In this document: positions 11,355-14,217 of the stretch, piece by piece
Layout: every line of letters begins with the position of its first letter
Position numbering within the stretch: the first letter of the stretch is position 1
Source of the DNA: Escherichia coli
GTDB taxonomy: Bacteria > Pseudomonadota > Gammaproteobacteria > Enterobacterales > Enterobacteriaceae
Reading direction: 5' to 3' (one strand)
Assembly (NCBI RefSeq): GCF_044647545.1
Contig: NZ_CP172818.1
DNA length: 64,000 nucleotides
Position numbers and translations under genes: made by a program
The notes under the pieces: generated by a model
What the model was told of the DNA's origin: nothing
What the model saw: only the letters and a program-made list of their open reading frames with translations
Database searches by the model: none

Positions 11355-12488
11355 CTAATCCAGCCGACGTTTGGTTTTCAGCCACGTCAGGCCGATAAAC
11401 ATCACCGCCGAAGCGATCAAAAACAGCACGTTTACCACCAGCACCACTGGAATATTCCCGGCGAGGAACAGGCTTTGCAGGGTGCTGACGAAATAACGAG
11501 CGGGAATAATGTACGTCACCGCGCGGATCACCGCGGGCATACTGTCGATCTGAAAAATAAAGCCGGAAAGCATAATCGACGGCAGGAACGCGGCGTTCAG
11601 GGCGACCTGAGCGGCATTGAACTGGTTGCGGGTAATCGTGGAAATCAGTAGCCCCATCCCCAGGGTACTGAGTAAAAACAGGCTGGAGATAAAAAACAGA
11701 ATCAGCAGCGACCCGCGATACGGCACGCCGAGAATAAACACCGACACCAGCATACACAGCAACATCGCCAGCATCCCGAGAAAGTAATAAGGGATCAGCT
11801 TACACAGCAGCAGCTCCGTGCGGGTAATCTCCGTAGAGAGCAAAGCCTCCATGGTGCCGCGTTCCCATTCTCGCGCCACCACCAGCGAGGTGAGAATCGC
11901 ACCGATGACCGTCATGATAATAGTCACCGCACCGGGGATAATAAAGTGCTGGCTTATCGCCGCCGGGTTAAACCAGTAGCGGGTTTGTACATCAATAAGC
12001 GGTTCAAAAGTCTGCCCGTTATCCTCCGCGCGCTGCATTTGCCAGATCTGCCAGATCCCTTCGACATACCCCTGCACAAAGTTAGCGGTATTCGGCTCAC
12101 TGCCGTCGGTGATCACCTGAATCGGTGCAATGGCGTTGGCGCGCTCCATCTGTTCGGCGAAATCCACCGGAATAACCACCAGACCGCGAATTTTCCCCGC
12201 CTGCATTTTGGCGATCAGTTCCTGACGGTTATCGCTGATGGTGGCGTCGATGTAGGGCGAACCGGTCATGGTGTGGGTGAAATCCAGCGCCGCTTCGCTA
12301 CGCTGTTCCAGTAAAATCCCGACCCGCAGCTTGCTGGAGTCGAGGTTAATGCCGTAACCAAAAATAAACAGCAGTAGCAGCGGGATCACCACCGCAATCA
12401 GCCAGCTACTCGGATCGCGAACGATCTGCCGCGTCTCTTTGACGCACAGTGCCCGCACGCGACGCCAGGACAGGATCGGATTACTCAT
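11355..12488 (-). CDS. ybhS: ABC-2 type efflux permease
   Basis: ORF 11355..12494; start trimmed to give the expected 377 aa. Confidence 0.9.
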
Positions 12489-14217
12489 TGCCATGCTCCT
12501 TATCCCAGTCGTGGATCAACTGAATAAAGGCCTGCTCCATGGTGGGATCGGGTTGCTCATCGTTGGCCGACTGTGCTTTCAAATCGTCCGGCGTGCCGCT
12601 GGCAATCAGCTTCCCGCGATACACCAGGCCAATGCGGTCGCAATATTCCGCTTCATCCATAAAGTGGGTGGTAACCATCACCGTGACGCCTTTCTCTACC
12701 ATGCTATTGATGTGCAGCCAGAATTCGCGGCGGGTGAGGGGATCAACGCCGGACGTCGGTTCGTCGAGAAACAGAATGTCCGGTTCATGCATCAGCGAGC
12801 AGGCCAGTGCCAGCCGCTGTTTAAAACCTAATGGCAGTTCATCGGTGGCGTGTGAGGCAATACTTTTCAGGCCAAATGCCTCGCTCATACGGGAGATTTT
12901 TTCGTTCTGCGCCCGACCGCGTAAGCCATACACACCAGAGAAAAAGCGTAAATTCTGTTCGACCGTCAGGTTGCCGTAGAGCGAAAATTTTTGCGCCATA
13001 TAGCCGAGATGCTGGCGCGCTTTACCGGAACTCTCTTTCAGATCCATGCCCAGCACCAGCGCCTGACCAGAGGTCGGTACCAGCAAACCGCACATCATCT
13101 TAAAGGTGGTCGATTTACCCGCGCCGTTTGGCCCCAGCAAACCAAAGATTTCACCGCGTTTGACGGCAAAGTTGACGTGATCGGTGGCGGCAAAATCGCC
13201 AAATTTTTTGGTCAGTTCTTTCGCTTCGATCACCGTCTCACCGGGTGTGCCTTCTACCGTATGCAATATTGCACCCAGCGGCGATTCCGAGGTTCCGGCA
13301 CCGCCCAGCAAATCAATAAACGCATCTTCAAAACGCGGCGTAGTTTCGTTGATGTTGATTTCCGGCATCCCGTCGGCATGGCGAATATCGTCTGGTGTGG
13401 CCTCTTTTTTGAGGATCAGGCGTACCGATTTCCCCTGAATCATGCCGTCGCTGACCTGCGGCAGTTTCAATGCCCGTTGCAACAGTTTGCGGTTGCCCTC
13501 GTGCGGGCTGGTCATCAGAAAGCTGCGTCCGGCCATAGTTTGAGTCAGGGCTTTTGGTTCCCCCTGATACAGCAACTCGCCTTCGTTCATCAGTAACACG
13601 TCACGGCACTGCTCGGCTTCGTCGAGATACGAGGTACTCCAGAGGATTAACATCCCTTCGCCCGCCAGCTCATGCACCATCTGCCACAGTTCGCGCCGTG
13701 AGATAGGGTCAACGCCGACGCCGGGTTCATCGAGCAGCAACACTTTCGGTTCGCCCACCAGGGTACAGGCCAGGCCGAGTTTTTGTTTCATCCCACCGGA
13801 GAGCTTGCCCGCCAGGCGTCCGGTAAACGGGCCAAGAGACGTAAACTCCAGCAGGCGAGCAAAAGTCTGCTTCCGTGCTTCACCGGTGACGCTGCGCAAA
13901 TCCGCGTACAGATTGAGGTTCTCCATCACCGTCAGATCTTCATACAGGCCGAATTTCTGCGGCATATAGCCGAGCACGGCGTGCAGCGCAGCGTCATTTT
14001 TGATCGGATCAAAGCCAATCACCGTGGCACTGCCGCTGTCGGGTTTCAGTAATCCCGCCAGCATCCGCATCAGCGTGGTTTTGCCCGCACCGTCCGGCCC
14101 AACCAGCCCCGTCACATAACCGGCGTGAATGGTGCAGTCGAGCGGTGCGACGGCGGGCTTGTCCATGCCCGGAAAGCGTTTTTCCAGGCCGTTCAGCGTG
14201 ATAACGGCATCATTCAT
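12481..14217 (-). CDS. ybhF: ABC transporter ATPase with two tandem nucleotide-binding domains
   Basis: Two Walker A motifs ([18 protein letters not shown]) and two LSGG signatures; start trimmed to give the expected 578 aa. Confidence 0.9.

Follow-up and report, generated by a model that had tools for sequence, protein, structure and literature searches.

The proteins discussed here are three E. coli ABC ATPases that have already been characterized. The exporter ATPase YbhF "has two NBDs" (nucleotide-binding domains), and the purified protein shows ATPase activity (Feng et al. 2020, PMC7190983), in an assay that took both ATP sites together rather than separately. For the CecR-YbhGFSR system to which it belongs, the same paper cites Yamanaka et al. 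2016. The substrates given for YbhFSR, tetracyclines and Na+/Li+, are the claims of one paper, and a Chem Rev 2021 review, which groups YbhFSR with the MacB/FtsX-type pumps, calls for further investigation. YbiT is an ABC-F protein, as are EttA, Uup, and YheS, and ribosome-bound structures of it are available (9njf and others; bioRxiv 10.1101/2023.06.15.543498). In E. coli, glutathione is imported by GsiABCD (PMC10355420, citing original work).

The genes for all three ATPases lie in the window, by which we mean the whole 64,000-nucleotide stretch of E. coli DNA analyzed (contig NZ_CP172818.1). They are ybhF (12481..14217, minus strand, ATG...TAA), ybiT (40960..42552, plus strand, GTG...TAA), and gsiA (55632..57503, plus strand, TTG...TAA). 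Nothing sets this DNA apart from the usual core chromosome of E. coli: of 5426 complete genomes of the species, 5423 contain the ybhF region, and positions 12000-15500 are 100% identical to several complete genomes, ST648-type, in which the gene is annotated ybhF. The coordinates and names given to the genes in a first-pass annotation agree with RefSeq, which annotates ybhF, ybiT, and gsiA at the same lengths of 578, 530, and 623 aa in a strain whose ybhF region matches the window at 100%; the names of YbiT and GsiA are also borne out by NCBIfam equivalogs.

Two ATPase domains in each of three proteins

The first-pass annotation had described each protein as a single polypeptide with two Walker A and two signature motifs. 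The two domains are real. Against Pfam PF00005 (ABC_tran, gathering score 25 bits), the whole proteins gave two stretches each, with E-values of 3.9e-61 for YbhF, 6.1e-48 for YbiT, and 1.2e-63 for GsiA, and the halves taken alone scored 99.3 and 110.1 bits (YbhF), 74.5 and 92.2 bits (YbiT), and 105.1 and 113.1 bits (GsiA), NBD1 first in each case; a lone NBD was found in none of them. Motif states were read from an alignment of the six NBDs with GlnQ. Walker A GxxGxGK[ST] with its Lys, the Q-loop Gln, Walker B hhhhDE, and the D-loop Asp occur in all six. The description of the Walker A motifs was therefore right, but that of the signatures was too generous, as only four of six are LSGG-like. 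The departures from a canonical LSGGQ-type signature and H-loop His are LPLGF in YbhF NBD2, VAPGW in YbiT NBD1, and Ser196 in YbhF NBD1, and a search for LSGG finds a single match in YbhF and a single one in YbiT. These deviations in YbhF and YbiT are conserved and compatible with membership in the ABC fold, and they define degenerate sites. In each protein, one chain supplies both members of the head-to-tail NBD pair, for which other ABC systems need two subunits, an architecture already known for all three from databases and the literature.

It is scarcely conceivable that chance or an annotation artefact produced the motif pairs, for example because a wrong ORF call or a sequencing frameshift had joined two neighboring single-NBD genes. 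We found no evidence supporting such an origin; the three ORFs are each uninterrupted, with no stop or frameshift between the cassettes, RefSeq annotates the same lengths, the ABC_tran E-values run from 1e-48 to 1e-63, and two NBDs are present in 122 of the 129 long sequences in an alignment of the YbhF family.

The pattern G..G.GK[ST] occurs seven times in the stop-to-stop ORFs of at least 150 aa in six frames of the whole window. All seven matches fall in ABC ATPases, two each in YbhF, YbiT, and GsiA and one in glnQ (30738..31460, minus strand), so that three is the complete count of tandem proteins for the window. The glnQ product, the one remaining ABC ATPase of the window, has a single NBD (ABC_tran, 132 bits in one stretch) and served as comparator.

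Three such proteins in one window are more than the genome average would give. With about 18 tandem proteins among the 79 ABC proteins of E. coli, ~0.25 would be expected per 64 kb. This excess is what would favor a functionally or evolutionarily linked cluster, produced by local duplication or forming one system, a reading in which three in 64 kb would be meaningful and which we regard as very improbable. With lambda ~0.25, the probability of at least three is ~0.002 per window, which becomes a chance of ~15% over ~72 windows, an estimate that uses the same figure of ~18. In BLASTP comparisons, halves of the same protein scored 163, 100, and 199 bits, whereas halves of different proteins reached at most 62 bits at 23-30% identity; each half is nearer to the single-domain GlnQ (60-121 bits) than to the halves of the other two proteins. 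YbhF, YbiT, and GsiA are assigned to three different NCBIfam families. Their genes belong to different operons and do not all share a strand; gaps of 26.7 kb and 13 kb, which contain unrelated genes (rhlE, dinG, fiu, dps, ompX, and moeAB among them), lie between them. As far as sequence can tell, a linked cluster is refuted. Almost certainly, ybhF, ybiT, and gsiA are native conserved genes of three unrelated ABC classes, each encoding two NBDs, whose co-occurrence is coincidental; the three tandem proteins would stem from separate duplication or fusion events. Finding them in one window has no functional meaning, and the term "tandem ABC" conceals differences in mechanism: one of the three drives an exporter, one is a ribosome factor, and one drives an importer.

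YbiT and GsiA

YbiT matches the NCBIfam equivalog PRK15064 at 1067.1 bits over aa 1-529 (cutoff 762) and PDB chain 9njf_Y "YbiT" over its full length (E = 0, 1185.8 bits). Its NBD1 (41011..41511, aa 18-184) carries the degenerate signature VAPGW (41425-41439, aa 156-160, assigned by alignment), and NBD2 (41962..42360, aa 335-467) carries LSGGE. Between them lies the ABC-F-specific linker, recognized as Pfam ABC_tran_Xtn PF12848 (41629..41886, aa 224-309, 84.6 bits against a cutoff of 25.9). The combination of two NBDs and the PF12848 linker, with neither a transmembrane domain nor a neighboring permease gene, identifies YbiT as an ABC-F ATPase with no membrane partner; the annotation places no transporter gene next to ybiT, which has ldtB and a decayed sugar island as neighbors. 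At 42554-45830 lies an odd block that may be a real pseudogene island, decayed to an unusual degree, or else an error or artefact. We found no difference between the YbiT of the window and E. coli YbiT. VAPGW, G159, and Q71 stand at the positions given in the structural preprint (bioRxiv 10.1101/2023.06.15.543498), in which VAPGW and its effects on site 2 are already described. YbiT would work in translation as a soluble factor that binds, as ABC-F proteins do, at the ribosomal E site, and the linker between its domains would reach into the ribosome.

GsiA matches NCBIfam equivalog PRK10261 over its entire length (aa 1-623, 1378.4 bits, cutoff 1077). Its TTG start is preceded by AAGGGG, and the gene has a 14-nt overlap with the iaaA stop. 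NBD1 (55728..56222, aa 33-197; LSGGM, H-loop THD) is OppD/DppD-like, and NBD2 (56652..57104, aa 341-491; FSGGQ, H-loop SHD) is OppF/DppF-like: models and PDB chains of OppD/DppD match aa 12-277, and those of OppF/DppF match aa 307-613. By sequence, then, GsiA is a fusion of an OppD-like and an OppF-like NBD. The Pfam oligo_HPY extension is found in two stretches, one after each NBD, that after NBD2 at 57258-57356 (aa 543-575). Downstream on the same strand are annotated gsiB, encoding a family-5 substrate-binding protein (SBP_bac_5), and the permease genes gsiC and gsiD (BPD_transp_1 in both), together spanning 57523..60913; the oligo_HPY extension and this operon place GsiA in the Opp/Dpp type. 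GsiA (YliA) is akin to the tandem ATPases YejF and M. tuberculosis OppD (Rv1281c) and DppD, and it differs from DppD/DppF and OppD/OppF, which are split pairs, in that both subunits are fused. A PDB search returned no solved structure of GsiA. Both of its ATP sites are canonical, and the protein would power glutathione import through GsiBCD.

The YbhF operon and family

On the minus strand, ybhF overlaps a gene at each end by 8 nt: its stop overlaps the start of ybhS (11355-12488), and its start overlaps the stop of ybhG (14210-15205), which encodes a HlyD-family periplasmic adaptor. Beyond these lie ybhR (10238-11344) and the TetR-family regulator gene cecR (15208-15879), both also on the minus strand. 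Pfam matches are HlyD_D23, HlyD_3, CecR_C, and TetR_N for the ybhG and cecR products and ABC2_membrane_3, ABC2_membrane, and ABC2_membrane_2 for YbhR and YbhS, with ABC2_membrane_3 scores of 174.6 bits for ybhR and 131.7 bits for ybhS, so that ybhF does have adjacent ABC-2 permease genes. The order cecR-ybhG-ybhF-ybhS-ybhR is that of the published YbhFSR system, the two NBDs are common to both, and ybhF is the same gene, its sequence showing no difference from E. coli YbhF. YbhF would be the motor, on the cytoplasmic side, of the system encoded by the CecR-regulated ybhGFSR operon, energizing a heterodimeric ABC-2 permease, YbhS/YbhR, with YbhG as periplasmic adaptor. We rejected assignment of YbhFSR to the MacB/FtsX-type tripartite pumps, with which it shares a HlyD-type adaptor, on the grounds that its permeases are of the ABC-2 type; at E <= 1e-5 in Pfam, YbhS and YbhR matched ABC-2 families alone and no FtsX domain.

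Within the ABC-2 ATPases, YbhF passes the drrA subfamily model TIGR01188 (451 bits in two stretches, cutoff 312.45). It differs from DrrA/NatA/NodI-type ATPases in having two NBDs, as DrrA-type proteins have a single one. Its best NCBIfam model is RbbA (NF033858), but the score of 517 bits is below the cutoff of 1050, and the best stretch covers only model positions 223-507 of 909, the NBD part. In RbbA/YhiH-type proteins the two NBDs and an ABC-2 permease form one chain; YbhF, at 578 aa and with no fused permease, was rejected as an RbbA. The PDB sequences closest to YbhF are those of the eukaryotic ABCA1/3/4/7 and of TM_1403 (4yer); in the ABCA proteins, unlike YbhF, the NBDs lie inside full-length transporters.

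ATP sites of YbhF

NBD1 of YbhF (13723..14145, minus strand, aa 25-165) has Walker A GPDGAGKT (aa 40-47), signature LSGGM (aa 139-143), and Walker B LLDE (aa 161-164). NBD2 (12751..13182, minus strand, aa 346-489) has Walker A GPNGAGKS (aa 362-369), Walker B FLDE (aa 483-486), and the degenerate signature LPLGF (12823..12837, aa 461-465), located by alignment. The alignment also puts Ser196 (13630..13632) at the H-loop, or switch histidine, position of NBD1, a column that holds His in the other five NBDs and in GlnQ. Ser196 lies 33 residues past Walker B Asp163, the same distance that separates the NBD2 H-loop His518, just downstream of the Pfam stretch, from Asp485.

This asymmetry is not peculiar to one protein. 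Closer homologues, at least 120 and almost all from Enterobacteriaceae at 88% identity or more (one at 74%, one at 86%), are too similar for conservation to be judged. Among YbhF representatives at 50% identity, 122 have two NBDs, and the same pattern is common to 98 of these diverse homologues. In NBD1 the signature Ser is kept in 118 (LSGGM in about as many), and the H-loop His is found in just 2, with A, S, or P otherwise; in NBD2 the second signature position is Pro (Pro462 in YbhF) in 98 and Ser in 16, and the H-loop His is present in 114. The catalytic Glu after the NBD1 Walker B is kept in 121 of the 122. Fourteen homologues are at least 850 aa long, and those listed carry the same asymmetric motifs.

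The AlphaFold model of YbhF (pLDDT 96.1, pTM 0.92) superposes as a whole chain, by Foldseek, on M. tuberculosis OppD (8j5s_D, TMq 0.74) and DppD (8wda_D, 0.71) and on ABCA4 (0.72-0.76); in the model, the NBDs are in the canonical arrangement, as in single-chain tandem NBDs of transporter complexes. From this whole-chain superposition and the general geometry of ABC sandwich dimers, we infer that Ser196 and LPLGF belong to the same composite site. Site 1, the degenerate one, would be formed by the Walker A and B motifs of NBD1, where Ser196 replaces the switch histidine, and by LPLGF from NBD2; site 2, the consensus one, would combine the Walker A and B motifs of NBD2 and His518 with LSGGM from NBD1. 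Site 1 would be expected to bind ATP and to hydrolyze it slowly or not at all. Because the NBD1 catalytic Glu is retained, however, this site is not fully classical as degenerate sites go and may still hydrolyze ATP.

Two of the three tandem proteins, YbhF and YbiT, would thus have one non-canonical ATP site each, which raises the question of whether one cassette in either is a dead pseudo-domain, making them in effect single-ATPase proteins. The strong degeneration of one signature in each (LPLGF and VAPGW) and the loss of the switch histidine from YbhF NBD1 are what one would expect if so, and the cryo-EM preprint (bioRxiv 10.1101/2023.06.15.543498) judges the catalytic competence of YbiT site 2 uncertain. 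Nonetheless, we hold this to be very unlikely. ABC_tran matches all the halves at full length and far over threshold, the Walker A Lys, Q-loop Gln, Walker B Asp-Glu, and D-loop Asp are kept throughout the six NBDs, and the solved YbiT structures in that preprint have ATP bound at both sites. The degenerate elements of the YbhF family, moreover, are conserved rather than decaying, as the counts for Pro462 and LSGGM attest, which argues for selection of an asymmetric but functional pair.

The asymmetry of YbhF appears not to have been reported for YbhFSR. A literature search outside the subscription journals found no mention of site degeneracy in YbhF; PMC7190983 calls all YbhF motifs highly conserved and mentions neither the Ser-for-His replacement nor LPLGF. 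We consider the chances about even that one consensus and one degenerate site, with both catalytic Glu residues kept, are a family-wide property of YbhF/RbbA-type ATPases and make of them an asymmetric motor matched to the non-identical YbhS and YbhR. The asymmetry is conserved in distant homologues and offers a simple, testable way into an efflux system of E. coli that is poorly understood.

Among heterodimeric ABC exporters, TM287/288, TAP1/2, and CFTR are examples in which one ATP site is degenerate. YbhF resembles them in that the switch histidine of NBD1 is lost and the signature of the partner NBD2 is non-canonical, both in what sandwich-dimer geometry would make the same composite site, and its system resembles theirs in having non-identical membrane subunits. 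It differs from them in that the NBD1 Walker B catalytic Glu is kept, whereas most classical degenerate sites have lost theirs, and in that YbhF is a member of the ABC-2 (type V-like) group and they are type IV exporters. If true, the asymmetry of YbhF would be the ABC-2-type counterpart of the degenerate-site mechanism of the heterodimeric type IV exporters.

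ybhF, ybiT, and gsiA encode tandem ABC ATPases

The open reading frames (ORFs) of ybhF (12481-14217, minus strand, ATG start, 578 aa), ybiT (40960-42552, plus strand, GTG start, 530 aa), and gsiA (55632-57503, plus strand, TTG start, 623 aa) are exact at the coordinates assigned in the first-pass annotation, which ascribed two Walker A and two signature motifs to each product. Pfam ABC_tran was found twice in each protein (E = 3.9e-61 for YbhF, 6.1e-48 for YbiT, and 1.2e-63 for GsiA). When the proteins were cut in half and each half was scanned alone, all six halves exceeded the gathering score of 25 bits (YbhF, 99.3 and 110.1; YbiT, 74.5 and 92.2; GsiA, 105.1 and 113.1 bits), and thus each protein has a pair of nucleotide-binding domains (NBDs), none having a single one. 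A six-frame scan of all window ORFs of at least 150 aa detected seven Walker A patterns, all in ABC ATPases: two each in YbhF, YbiT, and GsiA, and one in glnQ, which has one NBD (ABC_tran, 132 bits). Since none lies elsewhere, three is both the correct and the complete count of tandem ABC ATPases for the window. All three are named, characterized E. coli proteins whose two-NBD architecture is already known from databases and papers.

None of the six NBDs departs from the canonical form in its Walker A motif, Q-loop glutamine, Walker B Asp-Glu pair, or D-loop aspartate. The description of two signature motifs per protein held for four of the six, YbhF NBD1 (LSGGM), YbiT NBD2 (LSGGE), GsiA NBD1 (LSGGM), and GsiA NBD2 (FSGGQ), but not for YbhF NBD2 and YbiT NBD1, where the aligned position reads LPLGF and VAPGW, respectively. 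At the H-loop position YbhF NBD1 has Ser196, 33 residues past the Walker B aspartate (the same spacing as the H-loop in YbhF NBD2), and every other NBD has histidine.

Both gsiA and ybiT have non-ATG starts, with a Shine-Dalgarno-like AAGGGG ahead of the gsiA TTG and AGGA upstream of the ybiT GTG. The first 14 nt of gsiA lie within the end of iaaA, an overlap consistent with translational coupling of the two genes, and ybhF shares 8 nt with ybhG at one end and 8 nt with ybhS at the other.

Genome setting and relationship among the three genes

Several complete E. coli chromosomes, among them ST648, FDAARGOS_497, and MS6198, share window positions 12000-15500 at 100% identity. Of the 5426 complete E. 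coli genomes searched, 5423 contain this stretch. Positions 3-42548 are 99.98% identical to the ST648 record, in which the RefSeq gene order is uvrB, yvcK, moaABCDE, ybhLMN, clsB, ybhPQ, ybhR, ybhS, ybhF, ybhG (as "hlyD"), cecR, rhlE and then, with other genes in between, glnQPH, ybiT, and iaaA, gsiABCD, pdeI. That annotation also places a molybdenum-cofactor riboswitch upstream of moaA (window ~2146-2290). The pdeI (yliE) gene (61090-63438) has an uninterrupted reading frame of 782 aa here and is annotated as frameshifted in the ST648 record.

What remains of a sugar-utilization island between ybiT and ybiU (42554-45830) is badly damaged and has sharp boundaries; it is the counterpart of the ST648-type island encoding a GH31 hydrolase, an MFS transporter, and a LacI regulator. 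It carries ~4% substitutions and ~4% indel positions, evenly spread, has lost ~1.9 kb, and retains no ORF longer than 155 aa; no match above 92.2% identity was found among the 5426 complete genomes. Indels about as frequent as substitutions, between flanks 100% identical to ST648-type strains, are unlike ordinary recombination or pseudogene decay, and the block may stem from sequence errors or artificial degradation. It is unrelated to the tandem ABC finding.

In BLASTP comparisons, the two halves of one protein scored 163 (YbhF), 100 (YbiT), and 199 bits (GsiA), halves from different proteins scored at most 62 bits, and halves against the single-domain GlnQ scored 60 to 121 bits, for each half above its scores with halves of the other two proteins. 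By this ranking the three are unrelated beyond the ABC fold, and the tandem state has three separate origins. Distances of 26.7 and 13 kb, occupied by unrelated genes, separate the three genes, which belong to different operons and are not all on the same strand. E. coli has 79 ABC proteins, of which we take ~18 to be tandem; on that assumption ~0.25 tandem genes are expected per 64 kb, with a probability of three or more of ~0.002 per window and of ~15% for some window in the genome. Spacing, operons, strands, intervening genes, and this chance estimate gave no sign of linkage.

Predicted asymmetric ATP sites in YbhF

ABC ATPases sandwich two ATP molecules between two cassettes, each site combining the Walker A/B of one cassette with the signature of the other (restated in bioRxiv 10.1101/2023.06.15.543498); in a tandem protein, one chain provides both cassettes. 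In YbhF, Ser196 belongs to the ATP-binding cassette of site 1 (NBD1 Walker A/B with the NBD2 signature) and LPLGF closes over the same site, and therefore a degenerate site 1 is predicted, along with a consensus site 2 (the converse pairing).

Conservation was assessed in the best 150 representatives of 50%-identity clusters (32 to 97% identical to YbhF), 122 of which have two NBDs. The four-way YbhF pattern is common to 98 of these 122: the NBD1 signature serine occurs in 118 and the NBD1 H-loop histidine in 2 (A in 44, S in 34, P in 29), and the NBD2 signature position is Pro in 98 and Ser in 16, with the NBD2 H-loop histidine in 114. Permease-fused, RbbA-like members among those listed share the pattern. 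Judged by the aligned residues, the asymmetry is family-wide rather than an E. coli peculiarity. A confident AlphaFold model built from 91 of the homologue sequences (pLDDT 96.1, pTM 0.92) aligns along its entire length with tandem NBDs that form one chain in solved transporters (TMq 0.71-0.76), which supports a canonical NBD arrangement.

The switch histidine and signature serine are known to be important, and for this reason ATP hydrolysis may be reduced at site 1. That expectation is weakened by the retained NBD1 glutamate, the catalytic glutamates being kept in 121 and 117 of the 122 representatives. The YbhFSR paper terms the motifs highly conserved and leaves a family-wide asymmetry unmentioned (PMC7190983), and a full-text literature search for a degenerate site in YbhF gave nothing relevant. 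We regard the asymmetry as a modest addition that is open to testing, not as a discovery.

Comparison with characterized systems

YbiT passes the ABC-F equivalog (1067 bits versus 762), contains the ABC-F linker domain, has no transporter gene among its annotated neighbors, and aligns end to end with a ribosome-bound chain of solved structure (9njf and five other entries). Its site 2 (NBD2 P-loop with the NBD1 signature VAPGW) is degenerate, as already published together with the structural consequences (bioRxiv 10.1101/2023.06.15.543498). GsiA passes its own equivalog (1378 bits versus 1077), and both of its composite ATP sites are canonical. By models and solved chains, its N-terminal half resembles OppD/DppD and its C-terminal half OppF/DppF, and GsiA thus joins two subunit types that were distinct beforehand. 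Encoded alongside it are GsiB, a binding protein of family 5, and two permeases, GsiC and GsiD, GsiABCD being the E. coli glutathione importer (PMC10355420).

At 451 bits, YbhF clears the drrA subfamily cutoff of 312. It resembles the NBD part of RbbA, but its 517 bits fall short of that equivalog's cutoff of 1050. Published work states that it "has two NBDs," reports ATPase activity of the purified protein, and finds that ybhF influences tetracycline and ethidium efflux and Na+/Li+ tolerance (PMC7190983). A 2021 Chem Rev review (PMC8277102) files YbhFSR under MacB/FtsX and names ybhF as the periplasmic adaptor gene. We reject this assignment: Pfam puts the permeases YbhS and YbhR (10238-12488) in the ABC-2 family and gives no FtsX match for them, and it is ybhG (14210-15205) that encodes the HlyD-type adaptor. 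The neighboring CecR is a TetR-family regulator.

Between the YbhF cassettes, a small alpha/beta domain (aa ~230-305; window 13300-13530), confident in the AlphaFold secondary structure, matched no Pfam family at E <= 0.01. The search turned up no solved structure of YbhF itself; among solved proteins, the closest in sequence are the ABCA1/3/4/7 NBDs and Thermotoga TM_1403. The YbhF family profile continues past the ABCA NBDs into the regulatory-domain region behind them and also reaches the C-terminal part of TM_1403.
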